The notes under the pieces were generated by a model. That model was not told where the DNA came from. It ran no database searches and saw only the letters and a list, made by a program, of their open reading frames with translations. From an uncultured Porphyromonadaceae bacterium (GTDB taxonomy: Bacteria; Bacteroidota; Bacteroidia; Bacteroidales; Porphyromonadaceae), in assembly GCA_947253625.1 (NCBI GenBank), contig CAMYAB010000003.1:107105-171104 (forward strand): a stretch of 64,000 nucleotides of DNA, given 5' to 3'. A program made the position numbers and the translations under genes. Shown here piece after piece: positions 2,538-49,177 of this stretch (position 1 is the stretch's first letter; each line of letters starts with the position of its first letter).

Positions 2538-2949
2538 GGGGATGACCGGTTTTGACAGCATGTAGAGGTAGTTCGTAAGCACGTAGTGCATGGTTAGCTG
2601 GCACTATAATCCTAGATAACAAACACTTTCAAATGGCGAAAACAACTACGCTCTCGCAGCGTGATCTCTGATCACGACTAGAACAAACGTTCTTGCGGTT
2701 GAGCCCTTTGCTCCCGGCGAGACATCACCCAGATACCGTGAGCCCGAGGTGGTCTGATCCGGTGGTGCTATCTATATCGGGAAGGGTGCCGGAGGCGTCT
2801 TTCGTCCGGCACGACACTCAAGAGACTAAGCCTGCAGAGTGGTGGCTTTGGCCTAATCTGCGGGACGAAAACCGAAAGCAAAGCTAAACGTGTAGAAAGC
2901 GGGCTAGTTCCGTGTTTGGACGAGGGTTCGAATCCCTCCATCTCCACCA
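2538..2949 (+). ncRNA. ssrA: tmRNA (ssrA)
   Basis: The 5' end reads GGGGATGACCGGTTTTGACAGC. The 3' tRNA-like end reads GGACGAGGGTTCGAATCCCTCCATCTCCACCA. An internal tag reading frame, ggc gaa aac aac tac gct ctc gca gcg tga (about 2635-2664), encodes (A)GENNYALAA-stop, the Bacteroidota-type proteolysis tag. Confidence 0.9.
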
Positions 2950-3114: not shown

Positions 3115-4608
3115 TTGGAGATAGGTAAAACAAAACAGATCACTACCAGTATCCAAACAACTTTCCGCCCAATGCAAACTGATAAGTACTCCGTAGTCGT
3201 AGTGGACCTTGGCACGGACAAGATCAAGGCGGCCCTTGCCGAAAAACTCCCCGACGGCACACTGGACATCCTCGAACGAACCGAAATACCTGCCGAAGGG
3301 TGTATCGTACGTGGTGTCGTCTTCAATCAGCGAATAACAGCCGAAAAACTCAGCCTCCTGCTCCAAGAACTGGAGGAGACCACCCATGGCACAGAACGTA
3401 TCACCAAAGTCTATACCGGGATCGGCGGACAAGGGCTACGTAGCAAGATAGAAGAGCACGACCTGCCCTTTCCGGACGAACGCGAGATCACCGCAGAGGA
3501 CCTCACAGACCTCAGCCAAAGACTCCTGGAGGACCAAGACTCCCCCTACACCACCCTCGACTCCGTAGACCCACTATACCATGTCAATGGCAACCTCACC
3601 GCCAACCCTGTCGGCATCAAGGCCAAGAGCCTACGCGTCCGAAGTCAGAGAATCCTGACCAAGCGACAAATCCCCGACAGTATCCGTGACGTAATCGTGG
3701 ATAAGCTGGGACTGGAAATAGCCAATATCAATGTGTCACCCATCATTCTGGGCAATACTTTCCTGACCAAGGAGCAAAAAAAGCTGGGTAGTGCCATCAT
3801 AGACTTTGGGTGTGGGTGCACCACGGTGGCACTCTACAATAACGGCGTACTCGCCGGGCTGCGGACCTTTCCGCTCGGCTCACAAAACATCACACTCGAC
3901 CTCACTGCACTGCACATAGGAGTGTCGGAGGCAGAGCGCGTCAAGAAAAATGATGGATCCGCAGATGCCTCAAAGGCAAAAGATGAGCAGATCTTGGTCA
4001 AAAACGCCGACGAGCGATCCAGCAGGCAGATTCCACTCTACGAGATCAACCAATACGTCGAAGCACGTACTAGAGAGATCGTAGACAATATTGCGGCATT
4101 TGTACACGAAGTACTCGGAGAAAACAGCCTGCCGGGTGGGGTCGTCCTCACCGGTGGAGGATCCAAGCTGAAAGAACTACCACAGCTCATTACCAATGTC
4201 CTACAGACCAAAGTGGAACTCTCCACCAAGACCAACGACCTAGGCAACACCTACTACATCGCCAACCCGGAGTGGAACCTCGTCTACAGTATGTGTCTGG
4301 AGGCAGACACCCCGTGTACAGAGCCGGTAGTGGTACCGCAACCGGAAGAAAAAAGACAAGACAACCCACCACTCAACCCTCCTGTGACAGACTTTCCGGA
4401 GGATGACGAACTACCGGAGCAAAAACCACTCATACCCGATGACCTGCTTGGCGAACGTATCAAGAAAGAGCAACAAGATACCAAGCCAAACACTGTAAAG
4501 AGACGCAATAAGAAAACCGAAAAAAAGAGTGGACTCGGATTCAAAGGATGGATCGAGGGGTTCCTAAACCCCCTCATGCCACCCGAAGATGATGAAGATA
4601 ATATGTAA
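3115..4608 (+). CDS. ftsA: Cell division protein FtsA (true start possibly the ATG at 3172)
   Basis: Actin/Hsp70-fold FtsA: VVVDLGTDKIKAAL N-terminal phosphate-1 motif and LTGGGSKLKELPQL C-terminal motif. Immediately followed by ftsZ. Confidence 0.9.
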   Translation: MEIGKTKQITTSIQTTFRPMQTDKYSVVVVDLGTDKIKAALAEKLPDGTLDILERTEIPAEGCIVRGVVFNQRITAEKLSLLLQELEETTHGTERITKVYTGIGGQGLRSKIEEHDLPFPDEREITAEDLTDLSQRLLEDQDSPYTTLDSVDPLYHVNGNLTANPVGIKAKSLRVRSQRILTKRQIPDSIRDVIVDKLGLEIANINVSPIILGNTFLTKEQKKLGSAIIDFGCGCTTVALYNNGVLAGLRTFPLGSQNITLDLTALHIGVSEAERVKKNDGSADASKAKDEQILVKNADERSSRQIPLYEINQYVEARTREIVDNIAAFVHEVLGENSLPGGVVLTGGGSKLKELPQLITNVLQTKVELSTKTNDLGNTYYIANPEWNLVYSMCLEADTPCTEPVVVPQPEEKRQDNPPLNPPVTDFPEDDELPEQKPLIPDDLLGERIKKEQQDTKPNTVKRRNKKTEKKSGLGFKGWIEGFLNPLMPPEDDEDNM

Positions 4609-4616
4609 ATGTAGCC

Positions 4617-5954
4617 ATGGAAGAACTACTAGATATAGAATCCCGCACCTACACGGACCCAACGATCATCAAGGTAATAGGCGTAGGTGGTGGCGGTGGC
4701 AATGCCGTCAACTACATGTACTCGCAGGATGTCAAAAACGTATCCTACCTACTCTGCAATACCGACCGACAACACCTCCAAAAGTGTAGCATACCCGACA
4801 CCATCGTCATCGGAGAAAAACTCACCGGCGGACTCGGAGCCGGCAATGACCCGGAAATAGCCAAAGCAGCCGCAGAAGAGAGCAAGGAGCAGATCCAAAA
4901 AGCACTCAACGATGGCACCCGAATGGTCTTCATCACTGCCGGAATGGGTGGTGGCACCGGCACAGGAGCCGCACCCGTCATCGCTCGTGTAGCCAAGGAT
5001 ATGGGCATCCTCACGGTGGGAATAGTCACCATACCGTTTTTGTTTGAGGGCGAAAGAAAGATCTACCAAGCCATACGCGGTGTGGAGGAGTTGCAGAAAA
5101 ACGTGGATGCCATACTGGTTGTCCAAAACGAACTACTCTACAAAGTCTACCCCGACCTCACCGTATCCGAGGCCTTCAAGCGTGCCGATGAGACCCTCAC
5201 CACAAGTGCAAGATCCATCTCCGAGCTCATCACCCTACCGGCTGTGATGAATGTAGACTTTGCCGATGTCCGCACAACCCTCAAGGATGGGGGTGTCAGC
5301 ATCATTACCCGAGGCTTTTCATCCAAAGCCGAGGGCATACGAGTTGCCATCGATCGCGCACTCAACTCACCTCTCGTCAATACCACAAACTTCGACAAGG
5401 CCACTCGTGTCCTCTTCCTCCTCACCTACAAGAGTGGATTTGAGCCCAAGGCTGAGGTGGTCAACGATCTACGCCGTACGACAGACTCGATCAAAGCCGA
5501 CTTCAACTTCATATGGGGCTACAGCGAGCGCGAAGACGAGTACATGGAGGACGAGCTGGGCATCACTATACTGGCCAGTGGATTTGGACAAGAGGAGCTA
5601 CACCTCGACGACTACACTGTTGCAGAGAGAGAGGAGAAGATCCGCACCTGGTACCCGGACAGCATGAAAAGCAACAGCACCTACTCCAAGTACGGATCCA
5701 TCATTTTTACCGAAGAGGAGTTGGACGACGACACCTTCATCGCCCTAGTGAGCGACAAGCCCACGCTCACTCGCCGAGATGAGGATCTGACACGGTACCG
5801 AAAAGTCATCAACCCATCGGCTCACAAGGCGTTGCACAACGACTTCCAACCAAAACAGGCAGCCCCCGAAAACAAAATAAGCGACGACGGTCCTCAGACA
5901 GTGGACTCGACGTTGATCCGATTTGGGCTCAACTTTGACAACGACAAAAAATAA
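4617..5954 (+). CDS. ftsZ: Cell division GTPase FtsZ
   Basis: IKVIGVGGGGGNAVNYM and the tubulin signature GGGTGTGAAPV. Disordered C-terminal tail. Confidence 0.97.
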   Translation: MEELLDIESRTYTDPTIIKVIGVGGGGGNAVNYMYSQDVKNVSYLLCNTDRQHLQKCSIPDTIVIGEKLTGGLGAGNDPEIAKAAAEESKEQIQKALNDGTRMVFITAGMGGGTGTGAAPVIARVAKDMGILTVGIVTIPFLFEGERKIYQAIRGVEELQKNVDAILVVQNELLYKVYPDLTVSEAFKRADETLTTSARSISELITLPAVMNVDFADVRTTLKDGGVSIITRGFSSKAEGIRVAIDRALNSPLVNTTNFDKATRVLFLLTYKSGFEPKAEVVNDLRRTTDSIKADFNFIWGYSEREDEYMEDELGITILASGFGQEELHLDDYTVAEREEKIRTWYPDSMKSNSTYSKYGSIIFTEEELDDDTFIALVSDKPTLTRRDEDLTRYRKVINPSAHKALHNDFQPKQAAPENKISDDGPQTVDSTLIRFGLNFDNDKK

Positions 5955-6422: not shown

Positions 6423-7409
6423 TTGAAAATAGGCTCTATCGATCTCGGTCCTCATCCAGTCCTACTTGCACCGATGGAGGACGTCACGGATCAGTCCTTC
6501 AGGTTGCTTTGCCGAGAGTTTGGTTCGGCACTGGTCTACACCGAGTTTGTCAGTGCCGATGCCATAGTCCGCAGTATCCGCTCCTCCCTCACCAAAATGG
6601 TGGTCTCCGACGAAGAGCGTCCTGTGGCCATACAGATCTATGGCAAGGATCCGGACGTCATGGCCGAGGCAGCGCGTATCAGCCAAGAAGCGGGTCCGGA
6701 TCTCATCGACATCAACTTTGGCTGTCCTGTCAAGCGAGTGGCCACAAAAGGAGCCGGGGCAGGTCTCCTACGCGATATTCCACGCATGCTCGATATCACC
6801 AGCGCAGTGGTGGAGGCAGTGCAGCTACCTGTCACGGTCAAGACGCGACTAGGTTGGGATAGCGACAACATCATCATAGAGGACCTTGCCGAACAACTCC
6901 AGGATGCCGGTGCGCAGGCACTCACCATACACGGACGCACCCGTAGCCAAATGTACAAAGGGGTGGCCGACTGGGCACCTATCGCACGTGTCAAGAGCAA
7001 TCCACGCATCCACATACCCATCATAGCCAATGGCGACGTCACCGATGGCGAGAGTGCACTGCGCTGCTACCAAGAGACCAATGCGGACGCCATCATGGTC
7101 GGCAGAGGAGCCATCGGCAGACCGTGGGTATTTGAGGAGATGACCGCCACTCTGAGCGGTTCCACTCCCCCTACACATGATCACAAATGGTACATTGACG
7201 TACTCAAGCGACTAGTAGATGACAGCATAGCCCGATGCGGTGGCGATCGTGGTATCTGGCCCATCAGGCGTCACTTGGCAGCCTCACCGGTTCTGAAAGG
7301 TATCCCCGACTTCAGGCAACAAAGGATTGCCATCCTTCGTGCCGAGACCAGAGAAGAGCTGTTTGGATTGCTGGACCAGGTGCCACCCAGCACCGACTGC
7401 AAGTTCTGA
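6423..7409 (+). CDS. dus: tRNA-dihydrouridine synthase (DusB-like); TTG start
   Basis: LAPMEDVTDQSFR, FGCPVKRV and VKTRLGWD motifs of the Dus FMN TIM-barrel family. Confidence 0.9.
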   Translation: MKIGSIDLGPHPVLLAPMEDVTDQSFRLLCREFGSALVYTEFVSADAIVRSIRSSLTKMVVSDEERPVAIQIYGKDPDVMAEAARISQEAGPDLIDINFGCPVKRVATKGAGAGLLRDIPRMLDITSAVVEAVQLPVTVKTRLGWDSDNIIIEDLAEQLQDAGAQALTIHGRTRSQMYKGVADWAPIARVKSNPRIHIPIIANGDVTDGESALRCYQETNADAIMVGRGAIGRPWVFEEMTATLSGSTPPTHDHKWYIDVLKRLVDDSIARCGGDRGIWPIRRHLAASPVLKGIPDFRQQRIAILRAETREELFGLLDQVPPSTDCKF

Positions 7410-7436
7410 TCCACAACACTTACCTAGGAGACAAAA

Positions 7437-7486
7437 CAGAGAGAGGAAGTACCTAAAAATACTCCTCTCTCTGTTTTCTTTTTTCA
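7437..7486 (+). terminator. Rho-independent terminator after dus
   Basis: ACAGAGAGAGGA / TCCTCTCTCTGT 12-bp stem followed by TTTTCTTTTTT. Confidence 0.75.
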
Positions 7487-8034
7487 AAAATCACTCCCCC
7501 CTACCCTTTTTCCGAAGGTCTCACTTTTTCATACCACCCGGGCATGTTGGTAGAGTGTTAGTAAAGTGTGGAAAACGTGTGGAAAGATTTGGGCTACTTT
7601 TCTTGGTTTATTTTCAGATTTTCTTATGACGTAAAAGAATCAACAGCTCCAAGAAAACAGCAAAAAAGTTATGCACAACTTCTCCACCACTCTTTCCACA
7701 GATTCATCAACATTGATTCATTCGTACCGGACGGGGAAGTCGGCACTTATCCACAGTTTCCACACGTATTATATCCATCCTATCTTTTAGCCCCCACCCT
7801 ATAAGTCCACACAAACAGTTCTTAGCACACAAAAAAATAAGAAGAAAGGTGTTGGGCAAAACGGGTGAGGAGGCAAAAAAAAAGGATGCCCCGGTTTTGA
7901 CGATCTGCTTTGTTACCCTTGCGAGAGCTGCGCCCCAATTACCATCGCCCCACCCTCTACTCAAATAACCAATCATAGGTCTATATGGTTGTCCCAGCCG
8001 GGGGGCCAAAAACAGCTTTTTGGGGGTATTGATA

Positions 8035-8124
8035 ATCAGATGATTACAAGTGACTTTGAGTTTCACGGATAGAAGCAAAACTTTTCACGGATAGAAGCAA
8101 TCGTTTGGACGGATAGAAAAAAGT
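8035..8124 (+). repeat. Copy A of a dispersed ~90-110-bp repeat with three 22-bp-phased TTTCACGGATAGAAGC units
   Basis: tttcacggatagaagcaaaac / ttttcacggatagaagcaatcg / tttggacggatagaaaaaag. Reverse-complement copy at 40009-40119. Confidence 0.85.
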
Positions 8125-8570
8125 GGTTGGTTCGTTTTTCTCCCTCATAAAGGGGGGCAACATTTGTTTCCGAATGTAGTCCTGATGGGAAGAGTGTCTT
8201 GGGTGGGTACGAAATAATTTGTTACATTTGCACTGCTTGTTAGGAAATACAGATTTTTTATACAGACAACATACTATTGTTGATCTGCGTGCGTGTCCGA
8301 TTTTTGGGATGGTGTGCAGTGGTGCAATAGACGACCTATTGCAGATCATTGGTCTGCATAGAATCCTAGGTTTTACCTAGGTGACATGATGTTTATTTTG
8401 TTATAGCCATCTACTTTTTCATTGCTTTTATAAGTAGAGACTTTGAGAGCTCATAGCATGCTTGCTGTGGGTTCTCTTTTTTTTAAGGTGACTGTTGTAC
8501 GACGGTATTCGGCCACGTGACCGAATACCGTCCTCGGTTGCGTGGCTATATAGTTTGTCGTGTGGTGAGG

Positions 8571-9875
8571 CTAGAAGTCAAGTGAGAGTCCGGCCACACC
8601 GTCGATGGATAGGTTTTGTGGGTCAAGTTTCTCGTAGGTTCGTCCGAGGGTGGTGAGTTGTTTGGTGACACCCGGCTGTACGAAAAGGCCTACTTTTTTG
8701 GTCAGTGCGTACCTCAGTCCCACTCCACCTCGTACGCTCCAGCGCAAGGTCTTTTCGTTTGGATCACGAGACGGGGTACCCTGGGCCACTATTTTGTTGT
8801 CCGGCATGCTGTAGTAGGTTTGTCGGGAGGTGTGGAGCATTGCTTCGCCCAGTACGGAGACTGCCAGATGTAGGGACCACCTATTGGTCTTGACAAAGTC
8901 GTACCTGAGTGTGAGGGGTATGCCGAGTAGATGGTCGTGGTAGGTAGTTTGGGTGTAGTAGTCTTTGGATCCCTGTTTTAGGTCGGTGCTCTCTTTGGTG
9001 TATAGGATTCCGCTCTCGAGGTAGAGAGAGTGGGTGAGTGGATAGGAGGCTAGTAGGCCGGCACGAATGGGTGGGTGTCGGTGTACACTGATGGCTGTGC
9101 CTTGTGCTTGGTTGTAGAGTGAGATGAGCTCTTGAGCGTTTTTTTCGTCGTCTTGTGTTGGTTTGTCTGTTGCCTCACTTGGATTGTTGTTGTAATCTAT
9201 GACGTTGGATGCTGTGGCATACAGTCCACCATAGCCCTTGATGTTGCTGGCACCTCCCGGTATATTGGAGATCAGCAGGGAGGCACTCATGCGGTGGTGT
9301 GTGTGTGGAGTGTGGGGGAGTGTGGGGTACTTTTTTTGCTCCTGAGCTTGGCTTGCTTGGCTGTCAGTGGTTAGGGCTTTGGCTATGAGGAGAGGGTGGA
9401 GTGGCTGTGTGGTGAGTGGTTTGACTGTGGGTAGTGTAGCCGGTAGTGGGGTGGGTAGTGGTTTTGGCCGAGCTGTGTGGGCAGGTGTATGGTGCGTTTT
9501 TGGGAGGTTGTGTGTGTTGTTTTGATGGGGGTCGGAGAGAGGTGATGGGGTGGGCTTATGTTGTTTTTTTACGTTGTTTGGGGTAGGGGTGTTGGTATTG
9601 GTGATCTGAGCCAATCTGATGTTGGTGGAGGTTGGTACCGATCCGGTGGGTCGGTAGAGTAGCCAAATAAAGAGGAGTGTCGTCGCCGCCACTGACGCCG
9701 GCACCAGCCGCCAAAGGTGTGAGTGGATTTTTTTGGGGTGTGGTGTGTGCTGTACGCCGTCCAGTATGGCGCCCCACATCTCCTCCTCCTCACGGGTGGA
9801 CTGTGGCGCCGCCTCGTACCGATCGAGCTTTGTTTTTAGCTCATCTATCCAATTATTTGCATTGCTCATGGTCAC
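8571..9875 (-). CDS. Anti-sigma factor fused to a C-terminal outer-membrane beta-barrel domain (Pro/Thr-rich linker)
   Basis: N-terminal cytoplasmic anti-sigma-like segment, then one TM helix (WRLVPASVAATTLLFIWLLY). A long P/T/H-rich low-complexity linker follows, then a C-terminal beta-barrel (…GLRYALTKKVGLFVQPGV…GVAGLSLDF, ending in F). The 4-nt ATGA overlap with the upstream ECF sigma gene indicates translational coupling. Confidence 0.6.
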   Translation of the reverse strand: MTMSNANNWIDELKTKLDRYEAAPQSTREEEEMWGAILDGVQHTPHPKKIHSHLWRLVPASVAATTLLFIWLLYRPTGSVPTSTNIRLAQITNTNTPTPNNVKKQHKPTPSPLSDPHQNNTHNLPKTHHTPAHTARPKPLPTPLPATLPTVKPLTTQPLHPLLIAKALTTDSQASQAQEQKKYPTLPHTPHTHHRMSASLLISNIPGGASNIKGYGGLYATASNVIDYNNNPSEATDKPTQDDEKNAQELISLYNQAQGTAISVHRHPPIRAGLLASYPLTHSLYLESGILYTKESTDLKQGSKDYYTQTTYHDHLLGIPLTLRYDFVKTNRWSLHLAVSVLGEAMLHTSRQTYYSMPDNKIVAQGTPSRDPNEKTLRWSVRGGVGLRYALTKKVGLFVQPGVTKQLTTLGRTYEKLDPQNLSIDGVAGLSLDF

Positions 9876-10435
9876 ACTTTGTCTAGATAGTCTTGTATTT
9901 TTTTGGCCAGTATTTTTTTTGCTCTGGCATACTGAGAGGCTGATGTCCCCTCTTTTATTCCGAGTTGGTGGGCCACTTGTTTGTGGCTGAGTCCATCAAT
10001 GGCGTATAGGCAAAAGACGAGACGGTAGCCGGTGGGTAGCTCCTGTATCATCTCCTGTATGGCCTCGGTGGGTACTGAGGCAATATCCGGCTCTGTTTCT
10101 GTGGTCTCCTCCGGTAGGTCGTAGGTTTCGTCGAGCAAAAAAAAGTGTCTCCGACTCCTGATATAGCTGAGAGCTTGGTAGGTGGTCACTTGCTTCATCC
10201 AGGCACGCAGAGATCCTGCGCCTCGGTACTCAAAGGTGTTGATGCTCCGAAAGATCTTGATGAAGCTATCCTGGAGGATGTCCTTGGTGGCATCCGGGTC
10301 CGGTACATACCTATGGCAGACGCCACGTAGAAAGGAGAGATAGGTCTCGTAGAGAGCCTTCATCGCCTCTTGGTCGCCTTGGAGGATACCGCTTAGGAGT
10401 GCTTCATCGTCCCGATCCCATTGTCGTCTACTCAT
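9872..10435 (-). CDS. ECF-type RNA polymerase sigma-70 factor
   Basis: Region 2 (YLSFLRGVCHRY…DILQDSFIKIF) and region 4 HTH (LPTGYRLVFCLYAIDGLSHKQVAHQLGIKEGT). The ORF continues to 10543, but Met37 at 10435 gives a typical ~188-aa ECF sigma. Confidence 0.85.
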   Translation of the reverse strand: MSRRQWDRDDEALLSGILQGDQEAMKALYETYLSFLRGVCHRYVPDPDATKDILQDSFIKIFRSINTFEYRGAGSLRAWMKQVTTYQALSYIRSRRHFFLLDETYDLPEETTETEPDIASVPTEAIQEMIQELPTGYRLVFCLYAIDGLSHKQVAHQLGIKEGTSASQYARAKKILAKKIQDYLDKV

Positions 10436-10700
10436 CCGTGTGGTATTTTTGGGGTGCGTTTTTGGCAGGGCCGGAGCCCTTTGGAGCCTTTTGGGAGATT
10501 TTTTTTGTGGTGAAAAGGTAGCCCCTTTTCGGACAAAGTCCAAAAAGAGGCTACTTCCAATAGGGTGCAGTGAGCGGAGGTAAGGAGAGACGACTGCATA
10601 CTATAAGTTTGATGCTACCTCCTTTTTCGGCAGAAGCCGGGGAGTGGTACTCACTCTCCCTATTGGATAGCTGTGAAGTGTATAGGCATCGTTGATGGCC

Positions 10701-11405
10701 TTAGTGTTTGGGTTCTTCCTTCTTTCCACTAATGTAGTCCAGCTCGATGGTCTGGCTACCGGTTTCGGTGCGGAATCGAATCTTGAGTACCTTTTTTTCT
10801 CCCTTGGTGCTTGGTAGCTGCTTTAGGCTGAAAGCCACCAAGTTTTTGGCCACCATGCGTCCATTTTTGTCCTCTTTGACGTCGTGCCTCAGCTCAAGGG
10901 TGTAGGGATCCTGTGGGTCCACTCCGTAGAGTAGGTTGATGGAGTGCGGTTTTTTGGCATCTCCGTATCGAGCGGCAAAGTTTAGAGTCAGGTATCCATC
11001 CTCGACCAGGCAATCGTTTTTTATGAGACCAATGGGGTCGTTGCCGTACTTTAGATCGTTTTTGTCAGTGGATTGGACCATCTCTTTTGTCAGGATGTCT
11101 TTGATCCAATTGACGTATACAGCTTTGGTAAAGCCATCGTGTGGAGCTTTTTTGTCCTCTTTGTAGTTTACGACGGCTCTCACTTCTTTGTTTTTGAAAG
11201 GATGCGCCTTGATATTGGTGGGCAAAAGGGTGGTTTTTTCATCCAGTTGGAGGTAGACAACCTTTTTGGTGGGTTCGGTCTTGACGGTGACGATACCTAT
11301 GGAGGTCATCTCGTTTTTGGGTCTGTTTTTGTCAAATAGACAGGAGCTCATCATCAGTGTGACACAGAGAGAAGCCAGTGCGATTTGTTTTGTTTTGATC
11401 ATCAT
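10701..11405 (-). CDS. Hypothetical lipoprotein (possibly NigD-like)
   Basis: Signal peptide with a lipobox (LMMSSC). The gene and its flanks are visibly more AT-rich than the neighbours. Confidence 0.5.
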   Translation of the reverse strand: MMIKTKQIALASLCVTLMMSSCLFDKNRPKNEMTSIGIVTVKTEPTKKVVYLQLDEKTTLLPTNIKAHPFKNKEVRAVVNYKEDKKAPHDGFTKAVYVNWIKDILTKEMVQSTDKNDLKYGNDPIGLIKNDCLVEDGYLTLNFAARYGDAKKPHSINLLYGVDPQDPYTLELRHDVKEDKNGRMVAKNLVAFSLKQLPSTKGEKKVLKIRFRTETGSQTIELDYISGKKEEPKH

Positions 11406-11661
11406 AATGTTGAAGTGAATAAAAAAAAAATTAGTGATCTGTCTCTACTATGTAAACGCAGGAGGTATGGATTCCTTGCATCAGTTGTCCAAAAATTGTT
11501 TTTCTATCGGCACACTTGGTATGCGAGAGAGTGGTTGCTTTTTAGGAAAGAAGTGTGTGAAAAGTCCATAATACGGTATATTTTGGATAACTTTACGCTG
11601 TCTGTCGGGAAAGCTCGGCATGGAGACAAGATCAAGCAATAATCAAAACTCAAACAATAGT

Positions 11662-12576
11662 ATGATGAAACCAACACTAGTAGTACTTGCGGCCGGTATG
11701 GGCTCGAGGTATGGTGGTCTGAAGCAGATAGATGGCTTGGGCCCAAATGGCGAAACAATCATGGACTACTCGATCTACGATGCTGTGGAGGCGGGTTTTG
11801 GGAAGGTGGTCTTTGTGATCCGCAAGGATTTTGAGGACGACTTTCGGAAAACGATTGTCAGCAAGTATGAGAAGCACTTGCCGGTGGAGGTGGTCTTTCA
11901 GGACCTAAATACGCTGCCCTCCGGGTACAGTGCTCCGGCGGATCGAACCAAGCCATGGGGTACCAACCATGCTGTGATGATGGCAGAGGAGAAGGTGAGG
12001 GAGCCTTTTGCGGTGATCAATGCGGATGACTTTTATGGTCGCGAGAGCTACAAGATCCTTGCTGACTTTCTCCGAGAGGTATGGGACAAGACGAACCAAT
12101 ATGCCATGGTAGGCTACCGTGTCGGCAATACACTGAGTGAAGGTGGCTCTGTGGCGCGCGGTGTGTGCGAAAAAAATGAGGAGGACTACTTGACCGGAGT
12201 GGTGGAGCGTACCTCTATCCAGCGCAACAAGGAGGGTGAAATCTGCTTTATCGACGAAGAGGATCGCCAGGTAGTACTGGATGAGATGACTCCTGTGTCG
12301 ATGAATATGTGGGGCTTTACGCCGGACTATTTTGAGCACAGCAAGGGGGCTTTTGTCGACTTTTTGGATAAGCATATGCATGAGCCCAAGAGTGAATTTT
12401 ATATCCCCACTGTGGTGAATGACCTGATCCATGCCGGTCGTGCGACATGCAAGGTGCTGGATACCCCGTCTCGGTGGTTTGGGGTGACGTATGCCAGTGA
12501 CCGTCCCGGTGTGGTGGCAAAGTTTGAGGAGCTGCACCGCAAAGGCCTCTATCCGGATAATCTACTCAACCACTAA
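11662..12576 (+). CDS. Sugar-phosphate nucleotidyltransferase family protein
   Basis: N-terminal LAAGMGSRYGGLKQ (G-x-G-x-R nucleotide-binding loop) and an NTP_transferase fold. The ORF-track start at 11620 adds a Ser/Asn-rich leader. Met at 11662 is more plausible. Confidence 0.65.
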   Translation: MMKPTLVVLAAGMGSRYGGLKQIDGLGPNGETIMDYSIYDAVEAGFGKVVFVIRKDFEDDFRKTIVSKYEKHLPVEVVFQDLNTLPSGYSAPADRTKPWGTNHAVMMAEEKVREPFAVINADDFYGRESYKILADFLREVWDKTNQYAMVGYRVGNTLSEGGSVARGVCEKNEEDYLTGVVERTSIQRNKEGEICFIDEEDRQVVLDEMTPVSMNMWGFTPDYFEHSKGAFVDFLDKHMHEPKSEFYIPTVVNDLIHAGRATCKVLDTPSRWFGVTYASDRPGVVAKFEELHRKGLYPDNLLNH

Positions 12577-12579
12577 GCA

Positions 12580-13488
12580 CTGTCGCCGATCATAGAGCTC
12601 ATCACCATCACAGGTCCGACGGCTACCGGCAAGACTGCCGTGGCTGCTCATCTGGCGTATCTGCTGGGGAGTAGTGTCCTCAGTGCGGACTCTCGGCAGG
12701 TGTACCGAGGAATGGATATCGGTACGGGCAAGGATCTGAGTGAGTACACTGTAGAGGGTAGGGCGATACCCTACTACCTCATCGACATTTGTGAGCCGGG
12801 TGAGCGATACAACCTCTATAGGTACCTCTCGGATGTCGATGAGGCACTAGCTCGTCTCCCCAAGGGGGTACCACCGATACTGTGTGGTGGTACGGGCTTG
12901 TATGTGGAGTCTCTGGTGCGCGGCTATAGCCTAAGTAATGCTCCGGAGGATCCTGAGCTACGGGAACGCCTGTCCGGCCACTCTCTGGAGGAGCTACAGC
13001 GGCTTGCCCAAGGACTGGAAGTGGAGGATCCTCAGAATCCCCGTCGCTTGATCCGTGCAATAGAGGTGGATGCGTACTGTCGGAAGTCGGGCGAAGTGCC
13101 CCAGGTACTCCACAGACCACCAATGCAGGGGCCTGTCTTTTGCATAGATGTACCGCGTGAGGTGCGTCGTGCCCGTATCACGTCCCGTCTGCAGAGTCGT
13201 CTGAGGGAGGGTATGATAGAGGAGGTGGAGCGACTACTGGAGCAGGTGACTCCGGAGCAGCTCATCTACTATGGTCTGGAGTACAAGTATGTGACCGAGT
13301 ATGTGCTGGGCAGGCGTACCTATGCCGAGCTGGTGACGGACTTGGAAGTGGCGATCCACCAATTTGCGAAGCGTCAGATGACGTGGTTTAGGGGGATGGA
13401 GCGGCGCGGGGTACCAATCACCTACGTGCGTCCGCAGGAGACCCCTGGAGCGACTGCTGAGTATATCTGTTCGTTGTTGCAAAAGTAG
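12580..13488 (+). CDS. miaA: tRNA dimethylallyltransferase MiaA (start codon unresolved, non-canonical)
   Basis: The P-loop ITITGPTATGKTAVA is encoded at 12601-12639. This lies upstream of the first GTG/ATG at 12640 and immediately after the upstream TAA (12574-12576). The 12580 coordinate is the earliest possible CTG; the real start is not resolved. Confidence 0.8.
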   Translation: MSPIIELITITGPTATGKTAVAAHLAYLLGSSVLSADSRQVYRGMDIGTGKDLSEYTVEGRAIPYYLIDICEPGERYNLYRYLSDVDEALARLPKGVPPILCGGTGLYVESLVRGYSLSNAPEDPELRERLSGHSLEELQRLAQGLEVEDPQNPRRLIRAIEVDAYCRKSGEVPQVLHRPPMQGPVFCIDVPREVRRARITSRLQSRLREGMIEEVERLLEQVTPEQLIYYGLEYKYVTEYVLGRRTYAELVTDLEVAIHQFAKRQMTWFRGMERRGVPITYVRPQETPGATAEYICSLLQK

Positions 13489-13532
13489 GGTCAAAAAGGG
13501 TGGGGCAGAGTGCGTATCTTGAGACAAATGAG

Positions 13533-13540
13533 TAATTTTG
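13533..13540 (+). promoter_or_regulatory. -7 box TAATTTTG upstream of alaS
   Basis: TAnnTTTG match about 50 bp upstream of the alaS ATG. Confidence 0.4.
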
Positions 13541-13590
13541 CCAAATAGGGTTTGGAGGGTGGCATATAGGAAAGAAACAAACAAGCGAAT

Positions 13591-16209
13591 ATGAAGACGG
13601 TAAAAGAGATACGCCAGGCGTACTTGGATTTTTTTGAAGCACGAGGACACCACATCATCCCCTCGGCTCCTATGGTGATCAAGGATGATCCTACCCTGAT
13701 GTTTACGAACGCGGGGATGAACCAATTTAAGGACATCATCCTCGGCAATGCGCCGATCAAGTACTCCAGGATCGCGGATAGCCAGAAGTGTCTCCGTGTG
13801 AGTGGTAAGCACAATGACCTAGAGGAGGTCGGCAAGGATACGTACCACCACACTATGTTTGAGATGCTGGGCAACTGGTCTTTTGGGGACTATTTCAAGT
13901 CAGAGATCATCCCGTGGGCTTGGGAGCTGCTGACAGAGGTGTATGAGATTCCCAAGGATCGCCTGTATGTCACGATATTCGAGGGTGCGCCGTCGGAGGG
14001 TCTGGAGCGTGATGTCGAGGCCGGCAACCACTGGCGCAAGGTACTCTCGGAGGACCGAATCATCGATGGTAACAAGCATGACAACTTTTGGGAAATGGGT
14101 GAGACCGGCCCATGTGGCCCCTGCTCGGAGATCCATGTGGATATTCGTCCGGATAGCGAGCGAAAGAAAGTGGATGGCCGGACATTGGTCAATAAGGATC
14201 ACCCCCAAGTGATAGAGATCTGGAATCTCGTATTTATGCAGTACAATCGCTTGGCAGATGGTAGCTTGCAACCCCTCCCCAATCGTGTGATAGATACCGG
14301 TATGGGTCTGGAACGACTCTGTATGGCTCTGCAAGGAAAGACAAGCAACTATGACACGGATGTCTTTCAGCCACTGATCCACAAGGTGGCACAGCTGAGT
14401 GGCATGGAGTATGGCAAAGTGGAGGAGGTGGATGTCGCTATGCGTGTGGTGGCTGACCATATCCGTACGATTGCGTTTTCGATCACCGATGGGCAGTTGC
14501 CATCCAATGCCAAGGCAGGGTACGTGATCCGACGTATCTTGCGTCGTGCTGTCCGGTATGGCTATACATTCTTGGGTCAGAAAGAACCCTTCATGTACCG
14601 CTTGGTACCGACCTTGATCGAGTCTATGGGCGATGCGTATCCCGAGCTACGAGCCCAGGAGGAGATTATCTCCAGGGTCATCAAGCAAGAGGAGGCAACC
14701 TTTTTGCGGACACTGGCCACCGGTATACAGATGCTCCATGGCCATATAGCCGAGCTAAAAGCAGAGGGTAAGAGCAGGCTTGATGGTCGTGTGATCTTTG
14801 AGCTGTACGACACCTACGGATTTCCGGCCGACCTGACCGAGCTGATCCTCAGCGAACAAGGGCTGGCAGCTGATCTGGAGGGATTCGAGGCGGAGATGCG
14901 CCAACAAAAAGAACGCGCCCGCAATGCCGCACACATTGATGCCACAGACTGGGTACAGCTGCAGGAGGGTGAGACATTCTTCGTCGGCTACGATCAGTCC
15001 GAGGCAGATACCGCCATCCTGCGCTACCGACAGGTCAAGAAAAACAATAAGGTCGCTTATCAGCTGGTCCTAGAGAATAGCCCATTCTATGCCGAGATGG
15101 GTGGTCAGGTGGGCGACACCGGAGTGCTGACCGGACTGGAGGATGGAGAAGAAATCCATGTAGTGGATACCATCCGCGAAAATAACCTACCGATCTGTGT
15201 GGTCAACAAGTTGCCGAACGATCCTTCGCAAGCCTTTAGGGCAACGATTGATCTCGACAAACGCCTAGCGACCGAGGCCAATCACTCCTGCACCCACTTG
15301 TTGCACTTGGCTCTACGACGGGTATTGGGTGATCATGTGGAGCAAAAAGGCTCATATGTATCGCCTACTGAGCTTCGCTTTGACTTCTCCCACTACTCCA
15401 AACTGACACCTGAGGAGATCCGCCGAGTGGAGGAGCTGGTGACGGAGATGATCCGTGCCGACTACCGCCAAGAGGAGTTTAGAGAAGTGCCGATAGCCCA
15501 AGCCAAGAAGATGGGAGCCATGGCACTGTTTGGTGAGAAGTATGGAGAGGAAGTGAGGGTCATCAAGTACGGGGATTCGGTCGAGCTCTGTGGTGGCACG
15601 CACATACCATCCACCGGAATGATCGGTACTTTCAGGATTATCAGCGAGGGATCTATTGCGGCAGGGATCCGTCGTATACAGGCTGTGACTGCGCGTGGTG
15701 CCGAGGAGTATCTGTACAGTCGTGAGGATGAGCTCATGGCGATCAGGAGTCTGCTGACCGGCAACAATACCGAAGCCGCAGTACGCAAGCTGATCGACGA
15801 AAACAATGAACTGAAAAAGAGCCTCAAAGAAGCTGAAGATCTCCGCAAGAAACAACTCATAGAGCGACTCAGCACCCAGCCCGAAAACCACCACGGTATC
15901 CTACTCTTTGCCCCGACTGAAAACATGACACCGGCTCTGGCCAAGGATATTGCCTTTGCCCTAAAGGCACTGCATCCCGAGGAGGATATGGCCTTCTTGG
16001 TCGGATCGGTAGAGGGACCCAAAGCAACGCTCACCCTCCTACTCAGCGACAGCTTGGTCCAAAAAGGGCTCAATGCCGGTAACCTTGTCCGTGAAGCCGC
16101 CAAGTACATACAAGGTGGTGGCGGTGGACAACCGGGCTTTGCCACAGCAGGAGGCAAAAATCCGGCCGGGATCCATGATGCCCTGAGCCGGATAAAAGAG
16201 TTGATATGA
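13591..16209 (+). CDS. alaS: Alanine--tRNA ligase
   Basis: Class II AARS motifs, [28 protein letters not shown] and the C-terminal DHHA1-like domain [14 protein letters not shown]. Confidence 0.97.
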
Positions 16210-17267
16210 CCACTCCTCCGACGGACTATAAGCTACGAAAGACTCGACACGAACTGACTCGTGAGGTAAGCGACTACATTACCTTCATCCAAAAGGAGCA
16301 AGGTATCCGGGTATTTGTTGTCGCCGACGAAAATACCCAGTCCCTTCTGCCGGAGTTTCCTGTAGACCTAGTCCTAGGAGCAGGTGAGGAGTACAAGGAT
16401 CTCCGGAGTGCTCATCGTATTTGGCTTAGTATGGCGAGCCGTGGTATCTGTCGCAACGATCTACTGCTTGCCATTGGTGGCGGGACAGTGACCGATATCT
16501 GTGGCTTTGTGGCCGCCAACTACAAGCGTGGTTGTCGCTTGGCCTTCATCCCGACGACACTCCTTGCACTCATCGATGCCTCCGTAGGGGGCAAGTGTGG
16601 GGTGGATCTGCCGATGCAATCCTCAGATCAAAATATCAAAAACTTACTTGGTACCTTTTACCCACCTGAGGTGGTTTTTGGGTGTGTTGAGCTGGTGCGG
16701 GAGTCACGTCACCTATTCCAGGAGGGATTGGCCGAAGCCATCAAGTGCTATTGTCTTTTTTCCAAAGACCCCACAGCCCTCTTCTCAGGGGATTCCGATC
16801 TCTATGAGATGGTACGCCGGTGCATTGAGTACAAGCAGAGCTTGGTGGAGCAAGACCCCTACGATCGGTCGGTGCGTCAGTACCTCAATCTAGGGCACAC
16901 AGTAGGCCATGCACTGGAGGGGCTGGCATTGGCGGAGGGGCGACCGATCTCCCATGGTCGGGCTGTTGCGGCTGGTCTGGTCATAGAGGGATATTTCTCA
17001 TACGTATTGGAGGGCTTCCCGCAGGGGCACCTCCTACGTTTGGGAGAGTGGGTACAGAGTTTTATCGCTCCGGTTCACTTTAGTTGCGACGACTACGATC
17101 GCCTCTGGGCACATGCGCTTCAGGACAAAAAGAACCTCACCAACCCCAAAGGTCAAGTCACCTGCACGCTACTCAAAGACTTTGGCGCACCCCTGTACGG
17201 AGCAGGTGTAGGGCGCAAACTATGGGATGAAGGCTTGGACTTTTACAAGGACTTGATGCGTATATGA
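16206..17267 (+). CDS. aroB: 3-dehydroquinate synthase
   Basis: [47 protein letters not shown] (the DHQS glycine-rich and metal-binding region). ATGA overlap with alaS. Confidence 0.88.
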
Positions 17268-19513
17268 CCCATCGCCTAGCCACTTTCGTACTCTTCGTAC
17301 TATGCACCATAGCTTCGGCACTTGGCCAGGAGAGGAGTCTGAGAGCCGGCGACTGGAGCGGTCAGGGATGGGAGGGTGACGTGGGGTTCTTTCGTGAGAG
17401 CAACGGACTGCTGAGCTATCGTAACGATGACCAAGCAGGTGTCGCAACCATCTCCAAACCCTACCAAAAAAGTCCATCCGGCCTCCTATACTGGGAGATG
17501 CAGACCCGGTTTGATGCCCTGCCCACCACTGTCAACACCTTTGTTTGGACCCTCTTTTTCCAAAAGCACCTCGGTACCCTCTACGCCTACTCCCTAGAGC
17601 CCGCCATACGAGGATCCGGCCTCTTACTCACTCGCTACACCACAGATGCGGAGCGGAGGACTTTTACCGACCGGACCATCCTGGCCACCCTACCCTTGGA
17701 CGACCGACTAACCACCTGGGGTGCTCTCACGATACAAGCACTCTACACCGCACACGACGGCCTCAGGGTCTCTGCCATCCAGCCGAATGGCACCACATTC
17801 ACCGCCGATCCGATCACCACTATAGCAGATGAGGAGATCATGACCATCATGACCCTCCGTACACGCTTCTCTGCCAAAAAGAAGCTCAAGTACAGCTGGA
17901 TCCTACCGAGAGTGGAGACCACTCTCGGCAAGGAGACACCCGAGCTCACCTATACCGACCTAAAGATCTATGACGAAGGGCGTATCTGCCTGCGTCTCGA
18001 CCGAGTGGTACGAGTGGATCAGGCAGTGGCCACGGTCAGTGGTACAGCTGCATCCATCACCCTGGGCCAATCCTCCGATGAGATCATCCTCACTCTTCCT
18101 TTTGCCTTTGCCCAAGGGATGCGGTACGCTGTACGGGTCGAAAATCTACTTGATCTCCACGGCACACCGCACACCATCACGCTAGATTTTGAGGCCGAGT
18201 CCGACGACCCACAGGAGCAAAACCGACCCCAGGCCCCCGGTATCTTCATCACCGAGATCATGGCCGATCCACCCACCACTGGGCCACTGGCCGGCACAGC
18301 CTACATCGAGCTATACAATGCCACCCCCGAGACCATCTCCCTCGGTGCCCTACGCCTGCAGTACAAGCGACGTACTTACCGACTTCCGGCCGTGGCACTT
18401 GCCCCATACAGCTACGCACTCCTCTATCCTATGGGGTCGGCGATATTTGCCCAAGGCGTGCAGGTCCCGATGCCCGACTTTCCGGCCCTCGCCGGAGCAA
18501 GGTTCGACCTCAGCCTCGAGGCCCTCTCCGATGGTTGTATACTCGACCATGTCCACTTCTCCTCCGCACTCTACGGAGTGGGACTACCCGTCGGTGGTGC
18601 CTCGGTAGAGCGAGTGAGCATGCGTCCGGCAGAGTGGAGACGATCCGACGCGCCACAAGGCGGTACCCCAGGCTCTCCATCGACCATGAGAGCCCACAAG
18701 CCGATCCAAAAACAATCTGTCATCATCAACGAACTGATGCTCTCCCCCAAGCCGACAGGCGAAAAATACATTGAGCTCTACAACAACTCCGATACCGAGC
18801 TCAATCTCAGCGATCTCTACCTCACCTACCGAAATACCCCCACAGCCGCTCCCAAGAGTTGGCTCCTCGTCACCCAGCCCACTCCACTCGCACCGGGTGC
18901 CTATGTCGTCCTCTGTCCCTACCCCGATGCACTACCCCGCATACACGAGCAGACCGACCCCAAAACCTATATCGAGCGAATCGACTTCCCATCACTCAGC
19001 CCCACCTACACCGAGCTGACACTTGTCAGCCACAGAGGTGGGGTTGTCGTTGACGAAGCCATCTACCGCCGTCAGTGGCTGGGAGCCACCTCGGGAGAGC
19101 GCAGCCACCACTCGCTGGAGCGACTAGCACCCGACACCGATGGGCGGCAACAAAAATCCTGGTCACGATCCGCACAAGGCGGTACTCCCGGGGTACGCAA
19201 CCACCCAATGGATACCGATGACAGCACGGCCGCCGACTGGCCCGAGAGCCAAGCACTCACCCCCGGCCGCCTCCTACACTATGCGACCAAGTACTCCGAT
19301 CTCCTCACCATAGATCTCTACCACACCACAGGGATTCCGATCCTCACAGTACGCCAAAAACAAGCCACAGAGCTCCTCCACCACCTTATGGCCAATACTG
19401 CGCCACTCCCCACACTGCTGTACATTATCCGAGTCACCATAGCCCCTCCGCGAGAAGGGCTGGCACCCATCGCCTACACCGACAAGTGGATGCATGTCTC
19501 GGCATCTGAGTAG
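17264..19513 (+). CDS. Secreted protein with two lamin-tail (LTD) domains
   Basis: Signal peptide. Two copies of the LTD-like motif (GIFITEIMADPP…AYIELYNATPETISLGALRL and VIINELMLSPKPTGEKYIELYNNSDTELNLSDLYL). ATGA overlap with aroB. Confidence 0.5.
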   Translation: MTHRLATFVLFVLCTIASALGQERSLRAGDWSGQGWEGDVGFFRESNGLLSYRNDDQAGVATISKPYQKSPSGLLYWEMQTRFDALPTTVNTFVWTLFFQKHLGTLYAYSLEPAIRGSGLLLTRYTTDAERRTFTDRTILATLPLDDRLTTWGALTIQALYTAHDGLRVSAIQPNGTTFTADPITTIADEEIMTIMTLRTRFSAKKKLKYSWILPRVETTLGKETPELTYTDLKIYDEGRICLRLDRVVRVDQAVATVSGTAASITLGQSSDEIILTLPFAFAQGMRYAVRVENLLDLHGTPHTITLDFEAESDDPQEQNRPQAPGIFITEIMADPPTTGPLAGTAYIELYNATPETISLGALRLQYKRRTYRLPAVALAPYSYALLYPMGSAIFAQGVQVPMPDFPALAGARFDLSLEALSDGCILDHVHFSSALYGVGLPVGGASVERVSMRPAEWRRSDAPQGGTPGSPSTMRAHKPIQKQSVIINELMLSPKPTGEKYIELYNNSDTELNLSDLYLTYRNTPTAAPKSWLLVTQPTPLAPGAYVVLCPYPDALPRIHEQTDPKTYIERIDFPSLSPTYTELTLVSHRGGVVVDEAIYRRQWLGATSGERSHHSLERLAPDTDGRQQKSWSRSAQGGTPGVRNHPMDTDDSTAADWPESQALTPGRLLHYATKYSDLLTIDLYHTTGIPILTVRQKQATELLHHLMANTAPLPTLLYIIRVTIAPPREGLAPIAYTDKWMHVSASE

Positions 19514-22578: not shown

Positions 22579-22634
22579 GCAAAAAAGGACTGCTCCCCGG
22601 CCATCTCGGTACGGACAAATAGGAAAAACCCGAT

Positions 22635-22828
22635 GAGCGGGGGCGAAAAGTACTCCCCATGTAGATCCAAACTTTTTCCTCCGGTCGAAAAAGTCCAAAT
22701 CACACTGTGATTTATTCAGATCACTATGTGATTTATTCAAATCACTAAGTGGTTTCTTCAAATCACACAGTGATTTTATCTTTTTCTCCGACACACGTAC
22801 CTTTTTCTCCGACACGGTCGTTTTTTTC
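22635..22828 (+). repeat. Left 194-bp inverted repeat (IR-C) bracketing the MacB-type exporter operon
   Basis: Reverse complement of 28807-29000 with only 2 mismatches. Contains four 21-bp palindromic units (atcacactgtgat…) and two tttttctccgacac units. Confidence 0.9.
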
Positions 22829-22850: not shown

Positions 22851-22934
22851 TAGATGCCGAGCTTGCGGTGTGTCCCGTATCAGCGACTCTATGAGTGTCC
22901 ACCTTGTACGGTGTGCACAGTGGTGACCAACATT

Positions 22935-23615
22935 ATGATAGCTATGAATCCGGTAATCGAGATCAATGATCTACACAAGACCTACCCCGGAGTGCAGTCT
23001 CTGCATGTCCTCAAGGGGGTTTCACTGCGCATAGACAATGGGGAGATGGTGGCTCTGATGGGGGCCAGTGGATCGGGCAAGAGTACGCTCCTCAATATCC
23101 TCGGGATACTCGACACGTATGATGCAGGCTCCTATCACCTGAGTGGCAAGCTGATTCGGGATTTGGACGAAAACAGTGCGGCCGAGATGCGGGGACGGCA
23201 TATTGGTTTTGTGTTTCAGTCGTTTAATCTCATCAGCTTCAAGAACGCCCTAGAAAATGTGGCTCTGCCACTCTACTACCGAGGGGTCTCCCACAAAGTG
23301 CGCAACAAGCTGGCAGAGGAGTATCTGGACAAAGTGGGGCTTCTGGACTGGAAGGAGCACCTCCCGAATGAGTTGTCGGGCGGACAAAAGCAGAGAGTCT
23401 CCCTGGCAAGAGCACTGATCACCAAGCCGACCATACTCCTTGCCGATGAGCCCACCGGAGCCCTGGACAGCACGACCACCATAGAGGTGATGAATCTGCT
23501 GAGGCAGGTGAATGAGGAGGAGGGTGTGACCATGCTCATCGTCACGCACGAGCCGGCGGTGGCTGAGTGCTGCGAGCGCACGATACACATCAAGGACGGA
23601 CTGATCGTCCGATAA
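22935..23615 (+). CDS. MacB/LolD-type ABC transporter ATP-binding protein
   Basis: Walker A GASGSGKSTLLNILG, signature LSGGQKQRVSLARAL and Walker B LLADEPTGALD. The ORF extends to 22854, but the conserved N-terminus starts at MIAMNPVIEINDL. Confidence 0.85.
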   Translation: MIAMNPVIEINDLHKTYPGVQSLHVLKGVSLRIDNGEMVALMGASGSGKSTLLNILGILDTYDAGSYHLSGKLIRDLDENSAAEMRGRHIGFVFQSFNLISFKNALENVALPLYYRGVSHKVRNKLAEEYLDKVGLLDWKEHLPNELSGGQKQRVSLARALITKPTILLADEPTGALDSTTTIEVMNLLRQVNEEEGVTMLIVTHEPAVAECCERTIHIKDGLIVR

Positions 23616-23623
23616 GGAGGAGG

Positions 23624-24916: not shown

Positions 24917-24925
24917 GCAGGCAAC

Positions 24926-26206: not shown

Positions 26207-26234
26207 TAATCCCCAAAATATCCCCCCAAAAGCT

Positions 26235-27356: not shown

Positions 27357-27363
27357 GCCGACC

Positions 27364-28806: not shown

Positions 28807-29000
28807 GAAAAAAACGACCGTGTCGGAGAAAAAGGTACGTGTGTCGGAGAAAAAGATAAAATCACTGTGTGATTTGAAGAAACCACTTAGTGATTTGAAT
28901 AAATCACATAGTGATCTGAATAAATCACAGTGTGATTTGGACTTTTTCGACCGGAGAAAAAAGTTTGGATCTACATGGGGAGGACTTTTCGCCCCCGCTC
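28807..29000 (+). repeat. Right 194-bp inverted repeat (IR-D), reverse complement of IR-C
   Basis: 192 of 194 positions identical to the reverse complement of 22635-22828. Confidence 0.9.
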
Positions 29001-29053
29001 GTTGAGTTTTTGGAGTTGGTGTGTTGCGGTGAAAGTGGGTAGGCTCAATTTAC

Positions 29054-39740: not shown

Positions 39741-40008
39741 ATACTATACTGTCTTCTACATGTTGGGCGTGTTGCGCCAAGCACCACTCTTCCGCATTCA
39801 CCGAAGTCCTGCTCCGAATCCGGTCCGGAGCAGATCGCTTGGGCGCAACAGTCTCGTAATAGTGATACAAATATACCAAACAATTATCGACCAATCGTTT
39901 CCCCACTTGCCCCCCTACGAGACTGTCGAGAGGAGCCTCTGCCGGTGCGACTCCTCCGAGGGGTGTCGGAGGGGCTTTGGGGGTATGGACAAACCGAGGA
40001 ACGTTTTT

Positions 40009-43968: not shown

Positions 43969-43977
43969 GGAAACGAT

Positions 43978-48977: not shown

Positions 48978-48996
48978 TCTCTCTGCTCGGAACTGC

Positions 48997-49060: not shown

Positions 49061-49177
49061 CTAGTTTCATCCTCAGAGGAGACTTTTGGACATCAAGGGG
49101 TGCGGAAAAGAAAAAGGCCACACCGAGTTATCAAAAACGCTCGGTGGGCCTTGCTGTTTTTGGGATGTACCCCTTTT

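Follow-up and report, generated by a model that had tools for sequence, protein, structure and literature searches.

A probable chromosomal replication origin in a gene-free gap next to dus in a Porphyromonadaceae bacterium known from metagenomes

To our knowledge, the replication origins of Bacteroidetes are known almost solely from computer prediction. DnaA boxes also cluster at non-origin DnaA-binding loci away from the skew switch, such as datA and DARS in Escherichia coli and the DnaA-box clusters of Bacillus subtilis. In the basal unwinding system (BUS), the upstream one of two tandem boxes matches better, and the spacer length peaks at 10-13 bp (PMC8287927). The origin of Prevotella intermedia OMA14 was predicted by DoriC / Ori-Finder at 1,498,452-1,498,927 (PMC4755523), and a passage of the same paper that cites DoriC places the oriC of Bacteroidetes commonly far from dnaA. 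Origins in such positions are difficult to locate in draft assemblies and in genomes assembled from metagenomes. In this work, we studied a 64-kb stretch of DNA (64,000 nucleotides, about 55% G+C; hereafter, the window) from a bacterium of the Porphyromonas family that is known from metagenome assemblies alone. We found that the 1.16-kb gap between dus and a convergent OMP_b-brl_2 gene contains a conserved block, designated as block A, which is probably the chromosomal replication origin (oriC) of this Porphyromonadaceae bacterium.

The same locus is carried at 100% identity by ENA contigs of up to 160 kb. As stated in a preliminary description of this DNA, the gap (7410-8570) has no credible open reading frame (ORF), and the gene callers behind six metagenome copies of the locus also placed none. 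The gap is also AT-rich, as had been noticed, with a GC content of 0.47-0.49 compared with about 0.55 in the window. The six DnaA-box-like 9-mers of the preliminary description all exist, each one base lower than the position given there (Table 1). Boxes 1 and 2 point the same way, with 11 bp from start to start. When 9-mers with at most one mismatch to TTATCCACA or TTTTCCACA were scored on both strands, 7 matches fell within 400 bp at the gap, compared with 31 in the entire 64 kb. When the window was simulated 300 times with a first-order Markov model, no 400-bp stretch had more than four matches, and this number was reached once. The cluster in the gap was still the densest after the sequence had been extended to 98 kb.

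To examine relatives, we surveyed the Dus loci of 80 other Bacteroidales species. The gap was shared only with Porphyromonadaceae bacterium FC4, the Dus protein of which is 81% identical, and no DnaA-box cluster was found near dus in the other loci surveyed. A third sequence came from an FC4-like metagenome strain, which is 91% identical to FC4 across the gap. Block A aligns to FC4 (L001 7349-7681) at about 67% identity and also to the FC4-like strain, in which the block-A box cluster is the densest in the available 31.6 kb. In the three lineages, boxes 1, 2, 5, and 6 as well as the 3' core of box 3 show little or no change and keep their places in the alignment, and the pair of boxes 1 and 2 is invariant in all of them. 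Several further short motifs of block A are also invariant or nearly so, and the spacers between the motifs vary. The preliminary description had regarded a lack of conservation of the boxes in relatives as an argument against its proposal; the boxes are in fact kept in both FC4 and the FC4-like strain. Judging from the aligned sequences, short fixed motifs separated by drifting spacers have the look of protein-binding sites and not of a structured RNA. One of the fixed motifs, the 13-mer TATGACGTAAAAG, is invariant in the three lineages and, among 224 fetched loci, occurs solely in copies of this element; it may be the site of an accessory factor or part of an unwinding region.

The strand composition of the DNA also changes at the gap. 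The raw GC skew in the window flips its sign at about 8 kb; this flip is uninformative because the gene orientation changes there too. We lengthened the sequence leftwards on the metagenome scaffold that carries the window, so that 42 kb to the left of the gap and 56 kb to its right were available (62 genes, 98 kb in total), and the raw cumulative GC skew of these 98 kb has its minimum at about 8045. We then modelled the plus-strand skew at third codon positions of each gene as the sum of a coding-strand term and a term that flips its sign at a boundary. With the GC skew at third codon positions (GC3), the gap was the best of the 61 gene boundaries, the residual sum of squares falling from 1044 to 812 (permutation p <0.0003 with the gap fixed beforehand, and 0.003 when the best boundary could fall anywhere). 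With the corresponding AT skew (AT3), the gap was the second-best boundary, in a near tie with the adjacent boundary at 6418, and the residual sum of squares fell from 2098 to 1319 (p <0.0003). The mean coding GC3 skew on the left of the gap was -0.31 for plus-strand genes and -0.13 for minus-strand genes, and on the right of the gap -0.09 and -0.29, respectively, which is the mirror image of the left. The plus strand is enriched in G and T on the right of the gap and the minus strand on the left. Under the Ori-Finder rule of an excess of G over C on the leading strand, which PMC4755523 applied to a Bacteroidetes genome, this is the polarity of an origin. A terminus (dif) at this site was rejected because the polarity of both skews is the opposite of that required for a terminus. 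Neither the 42 kb to the left nor the 56 kb to the right showed a second switch. The cumulative-skew check, which the preliminary description proposed for the whole chromosome, placed the minimum in the gap over these 98 kb. A skew minimum beside dnaA had been proposed there as a refutation; this carries little weight, because the oriC of Bacteroidetes is commonly far from dnaA according to the passage of PMC4755523 mentioned above.

A switch of the same polarity was found in the second lineage. In the FC4-like contig (L221 plus L219, 31.6 kb), in which the genes on the right of the gap are unrelated to those of the window, the gap was again the best boundary for both skews (p about 0.025 each). 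In FC4 itself, we examined a 20-kb stretch located 75 kb to the right of the block, leaving out two insertion sequence genes. The genes predicted to lie on the lagging strand had a GC3 skew of -0.19 and an AT3 skew of +0.02, and those predicted to lie on the leading strand had skews of about -0.05 and about -0.25, respectively. These values are consistent with those predicted if the plus strand of the scaffold remains the leading strand there. Thus, the observations that support an origin are the box cluster, its conservation in relatives, and the composition switch of origin polarity at the gap in two lineages.

Block A also has features that resemble an unwinding module. The tandem pair of boxes 5 and 6 is followed by a trio-like stretch, which reads 3'-5' on the bottom strand as TAA TAT AGG TAG GAT AGA AAA in the window and as AAA TAT AAG TAG TAG in FC4, with the same register in the FC4-like strain. 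The triplets begin 12 nt past the upstream box of the pair, a register that is conserved across the three lineages and that fits the spacer peak of 10-13 bp reported for the BUS (PMC8287927). The central A is present in 5 of the 7 triplets in the window and in 5 consecutive triplets in FC4; the array is degenerate and is not statistically separable from an AT-rich background. Stretches of 40 nt with 70-75% A+T are located at 7607-7646 in the window and, in FC4, on the right-hand side of the box pair; they do not stand out from the rest of the window.

From the likeness to known origins, we infer that DnaA binds at block A, that the duplex is unwound there, and that replication fires from it. 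By analogy with the origin of B. subtilis, DnaA would bind the six 9-mer boxes, of which two on the left are in the minus orientation and four on the right in the plus orientation. From the tandem pair TTATCCACA-GTTTCCACA, a DnaA oligomer would extend over either the neighbouring trio-like stretch (from about 7768) or the AT-rich centre of the block (about 7590-7660). The oligomer would open the duplex, and forks would depart in both directions.

Table 1. Features of the gap and its surroundings (positions are those of the window)
Feature	Position	Strand	Remarks
Candidate oriC core (block A)	7540..7875	none	Conserved non-coding 335-bp block holding six DnaA boxes
DnaA box 1, TGTGGAAAA	7567-7575	-	Minus-strand reading TTTTCCACA
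DnaA box 2, TGTGGAAAG	7578-7586	-	Minus-strand reading CTTTCCACA
DnaA box 3, TTATGCACA	7669-7677	+	FC4 equivalent at matching position, TTGTTCACA
DnaA box 4, CTTTCCACA	7692-7700	+	Conserved in part; FC4 equivalent, TACTCCACT
DnaA box 5, TTATCCACA	7747-7755	+	Perfect consensus match
DnaA box 6, GTTTCCACA	7756-7764	+	Abuts box 5 as tandem pair
Seventh box-like 9-mer, TGATCCACA	7407-7415		Overlaps dus stop codon
13-mer, TATGACGTAAAAG	7625..7637		Within most AT-rich 40-mer of block A; CRE-like TGACGTAA core
Trio-like stretch	7768..7788	-	About 70% A+T; box pair followed by 25-nt AT-rich stretch
dus intrinsic terminator	7433..7485	+	About 18-bp hairpin (7433-7477), then T-run
Insertion of about 290 bp	7876..8165	none	In this species, absent from FC4; between origin core and RNA promoter
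Dispersed MITE-like repeat	8023..8130	+	Imperfect tandem units of about 22 bp, TTTCACGGATAGAAGCAAAACT
-7 promoter element, TACATTTG	8223..8230	+	Bacteroidetes type; invariant in three lineages
Small-RNA candidate, about 250 nt	~8237..8484	+	Own promoter element, intrinsic terminator, and conservation
Perfect 12-bp-stem palindrome centred on CACGTG	8501..8532		Just past stop codon of minus-strand OMP_b-brl_2 gene
Genes left of gap: mutS, ftsA, ftsZ, yqeY, dus	dus end, 7409	+	In this order
Genes right of 1.16-kb gap: OMP_b-brl_2 protein, then ECF sigma factor, NigD	8571-9875 (OMP_b-brl_2)	-
tmRNA gene	2538-2949	+	Rfam RF00023, 140.9 bits; between mutS and ftsA

The remainder of the gap consists of unrelated neighbours, namely the dus terminator, the insertion with the repeat, a putative small-RNA gene with transcription of its own, and a hairpin. 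The terminator, which the preliminary description had already recognised, is a hairpin (7433-7477) with a T-run; the hairpin folds at -27.2 kcal/mol (z-score -5.4), and no shuffled sequence folded equally well. To the right of the insertion, we found a candidate small RNA. The -7 promoter consensus of Bacteroidetes is TAnnTTTG, and an element of this type precedes the candidate. A scan for sigma-70 promoters gave no match, as expected for Bacteroidetes. The candidate has a conserved 5' part (GCTTGTTAGGAAA), a variable middle, and a nearly invariant 3' part of 110 nt; it ends in a terminator (8445-8476; 14 pairs, then eight T), and its fold has a z-score of -4.5. The 3' 120 nt are 95% identical to FC4, compared with 67% for block A, and at the DNA level the conservation of the 3' 110 nt is much higher than that of the adjacent protein-coding genes. 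The sole ORF longer than a few codons (53 aa, 8219-8380) is located in the variable, indel-rich part, and a conserved mini-ORF of 6 codons (ATGATGTTTATTTTGTTATAG) is present at 8386-8406 inside the candidate.

The conserved 3' part and the invariant -7 element point to a conserved transcription unit of its own in the right part of the gap, and the region 8237-8484 is a predicted small-RNA gene, a candidate identified from its sequence. It has no match to an Rfam family, and an exact scan with a 21-mer from the RNA gave 0 matches in viral contigs and 0 in JGI metagenomes. The suggestion in the preliminary description that the gap might encode an unannotated non-coding RNA is supported for about 8237-8484 and not for the box cluster, which lies outside it. 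The covariance-model scan suggested there was run and gave no family for either part of the gap. With Rfam 15 at gathering thresholds, the transfer-messenger RNA (tmRNA) was the sole match in the whole window; at E-values up to 10 over 7300-8700, the best matches had at most 24 bits and were miRNA/ctRNA hairpin noise.

The preliminary description had also listed a repeat copy and a palindrome in the gap. The repeat was recovered (Table 1) and resembles a MITE (miniature inverted-repeat transposable element). An inverted copy is present at 40007-40128, further copies outside the window are located upstream of gidA (L213 ~4300-4400) and upstream of mutS (L081 4971-5108), and the family is represented in FC4 too. 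The gidA copy is the end point of several metagenome contigs, and the assembly breaks upstream of gidA are thus ascribed to the repeat there. The BrickBuilt MITE of Porphyromonas gingivalis has a 23-nt repeat with the consensus AGAYCATARTATCCTCTCRTRTG (PMC4596501) and is similarly dispersed, intergenic, composed of imperfect 22-23-nt tandem repeats, and tied to assembly breaks. However, the repeat unit TTTCACGGATAGAAGCAAAACT is unrelated to the consensus AGAYCATARTATCCTCTCRTRTG, and the core of the BrickBuilt terminal inverted repeat, with one mismatch allowed, had no match in the gap. The identity of the 8023-8130 repeat with BrickBuilt was rejected on these two grounds. The palindrome exists as described, at 8501-8532 instead of 8499-8530. 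No U-tail accompanies it on either strand, and FC4 lacks it; it may serve as a binding site for a protein or as a 3' hairpin that confers stability.

Other repeats were observed elsewhere in the window. Two inverted repeats of 205 nt (22624-22828 and 28807-29011) are 98% complementary, and each contains about four tandem 21-bp units with the palindromic core CAAATCACnnnGTGATTTATT. They flank a 6-kb efflux operon (ABC / MacB-FtsX / HlyD / OEP; 22854-28731) and this arrangement may represent a mobile cassette or a pair of operator arrays. Between the RNase HII and GH92 glycosidase genes, tandem and inverted repeats of 22 bp (AACTGCAGTTTCTAC) form an array at 48991-49068.

The preliminary description had offered three readings of the gap, namely a replication origin, a DnaA-titrating or regulatory locus, and a non-coding RNA gene. 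Of these, the origin is now the best supported, with conserved boxes and a switch that falls on the gap after correction for coding bias in two lineages. It is unlikely that block A is a non-origin cluster that titrates or regulates DnaA in the manner of datA, DARS, and the B. subtilis clusters, or that controls the promoter of the small RNA. A real and conserved box cluster, the absence of a clear unwinding element, the local convergence of the flanking genes, and, in FC4, an RNA promoter about 60 bp from the block would all agree with such a role. However, the origin-polarity switch falls on the gap in two lineages, the FC4 stretch 75 kb away behaves as predicted, and the block ends in a tandem pair with a trio-like stretch in the style of an unwinding module. 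Tight regulation in cis is also disfavoured, as the 290-bp insertion parts the block from the RNA promoter and both are conserved. It is very unlikely that a structured non-coding RNA is encoded by block A itself, or that the block is a long leader. The block is conserved and non-coding and has no ORF, but it had no Rfam match at E-values up to 10, no -7 element or terminator brackets it, its conservation consists of short invariant motifs with free spacers and not of paired regions, and the presumed transcribed unit in the gap is the separate candidate at about 8237-8484.

A further possibility is that the switch marks the boundary of a large inversion or translocation and that the 9-mers bind another protein or are the relic of a mobile element or plasmid replicon. 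The gene order does differ between this species and FC4, with miaA-alaS-aroB-LTD on opposite sides of the gap, and MITE-like repeats are present in and around the gap. Nevertheless, the switch is found in both lineages despite their different flanks and is not followed by a second one in 98 kb. The 9-mers fit the DnaA-box consensus, and their arrangement fits that of a dnaA-dnaN origin from a metagenome locus (L139, see below). No similarity to plasmids or phages was found: BLAST of the whole gap against plasmids and phages gave no match, and an exact scan of viral contigs with a 20-base motif from block A gave 0 matches. We consider this explanation quite improbable, less likely than a non-origin cluster and slightly more likely than an RNA gene. 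The idea of a plasmid or phage replicon was dropped because nothing matched in the plasmid, phage, and viral collections.

Several points weigh against an origin at block A. The trio-like stretch is a degenerate, weak match and could have arisen by chance in AT-rich DNA. The duplex-stability profile showed no clear AT-rich unwinding element, and the least stable 40-mers of the gap are matched elsewhere in the window. The skew analysis extends over 98 kb in this species and about 52 kb in FC4-type DNA, which is less than a whole chromosome, and the boundary of a rearrangement longer than 42 kb could mimic the switch. Such a block is missing beside dus in relatives whose Dus proteins are 83% and 72% identical, and the comparison thus concerns one small clade. 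The preliminary description had noted as a caveat that the flanking genes converge on the gap. This caveat stands for the inner ~11 kb on each side, including ftsA-ftsZ, where transcription runs towards the site, but not for the regions farther out, where genes point away from the gap: 15 consecutive minus-strand genes on the left (about -11.4 to -34 kb) and 12 consecutive plus-strand genes on the right (11.6 to 28.7 kb). In total, 36 of the 62 genes are co-oriented with the inferred forks. Finally, neither dnaA, dnaN, nor any other classical origin neighbour was found in the 98 kb by gene tables and Pfam scans. We did not count the missing dnaA/dnaN adjacency against an origin, because the passage of PMC4755523 on Bacteroidetes describes their oriC as commonly far from dnaA. 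Such adjacency is usual in many phyla but does not define the origins of Bacteroidetes.

The gene gidA lies 16-18 kb to the left of the gap. The divergent gap upstream of it (about -11,400 to -10,560) was considered as a classical origin site and rejected, since it contains no box cluster and only a copy of the repeat.

The origin, the RNA, and ftsA-ftsZ-yqeY-dus remain linked while the genes farther out are rearranged. In FC4, the RNA promoter is only about 60 bp beyond the right edge of block A. The RNA or its transcription could activate or time the firing of the origin, or DnaA could control the RNA; a single functional unit made up of the origin and the RNA beside it is, however, unlikely. 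Such coupling, if true, would be an origin-coupled riboregulator specific to Bacteroidetes.

With regard to gene order, the block (303-aa protein)-miaA-alaS-aroB-LTD is located on the right of the gap in this species (11620-19513). In the FC4-type genomes, the whole block is located on the left, directly upstream of ftsA and on the same strand (L221 4355-12238). Having switched sides without changing strand, this block has changed from the leading- to the lagging-strand orientation. Its GC3 skews differ in line with this change, ranging from +0.15 to -0.37 here and from -0.02 to -0.33 in the FC4-like strain. The division and cell wall (dcw) cluster is split in the window: ftsA-ftsZ (within 3115-5954) lies directly to the left of the putative origin, and ftsW-murG-murC (within 42640-47181) lies about 35-39 kb to its right. 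A 254-aa protein without a Pfam match is encoded beside ftsW-murG-murC and may be FtsQ.

Our results do not change the general knowledge of how origins work. A probable origin was placed here with fragmentary contigs alone, once coding bias had been told apart from replication bias, and the outcome is a compact, conserved candidate of 335 bp with a clear box grammar. The candidate may be of use in the construction of oriC plasmids for the genetics of Porphyromonas-like bacteria and in anchoring growth-rate estimates from metagenome coverage.

We found no described origin sequence from Porphyromonas or other Bacteroidetes in the literature for comparison. To obtain comparators, and for this use only, we scanned metagenomes with the two-box pattern TGTGGAAAANNTGTGGAAAG, which gave at least 120 unrelated loci, many of them box-rich. 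The pair of boxes 1 and 2 is also present in the box-rich regions of many of these other metagenome loci and in L139, in which the cluster lies between dnaA (8329-9711) and dnaN (10303-11439); because these genes flank it, L139 was taken as a canonical origin. As in block A, minus-oriented boxes with starts 11 bp apart are followed by plus-oriented boxes, and the array of L139 ends in the 18-mer TTATCCACAGTTTCCACA, which is identical to boxes 5-6 of block A. In L139, the 18-mer is followed by CCCT and then by the trio run CTACTACTAC, whereas the trio array of block A is degenerate and has no GAT run.

Compared with DnaA-dependent origins with a BUS, which was defined in B. subtilis and has been surveyed across phyla (PMC8287927, PMC6669920), block A likewise has box groups in two opposed orientations. 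It also shares with them an abutting tandem pair with a perfect upstream box, a 12-nt spacer, and a position at the skew switch; the degenerate triplets with a central A, followed by AT-rich DNA, may be a further likeness. It differs from the BUS origins and from L139 in lying away from dnaA/dnaN, in having no obvious long AT-rich unwinding element, and in having neighbours that are transcribed towards it. The datA and DARS loci and the B. subtilis clusters resemble block A in having boxes in non-coding DNA away from dnaA, but block A, unlike them, coincides with the skew switch. The predicted Bacteroidetes origins (DoriC / Ori-Finder), likened here to block A by description and not by sequence, are also intergenic, measure about 0.3-0.5 kb, contain several DnaA boxes of the E. 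coli type, and lie at a GC-skew transition far from dnaA. As a probable origin, block A is an ordinary kind of element, newly located in this lineage, and is placed as the origins of Bacteroidetes usually are.

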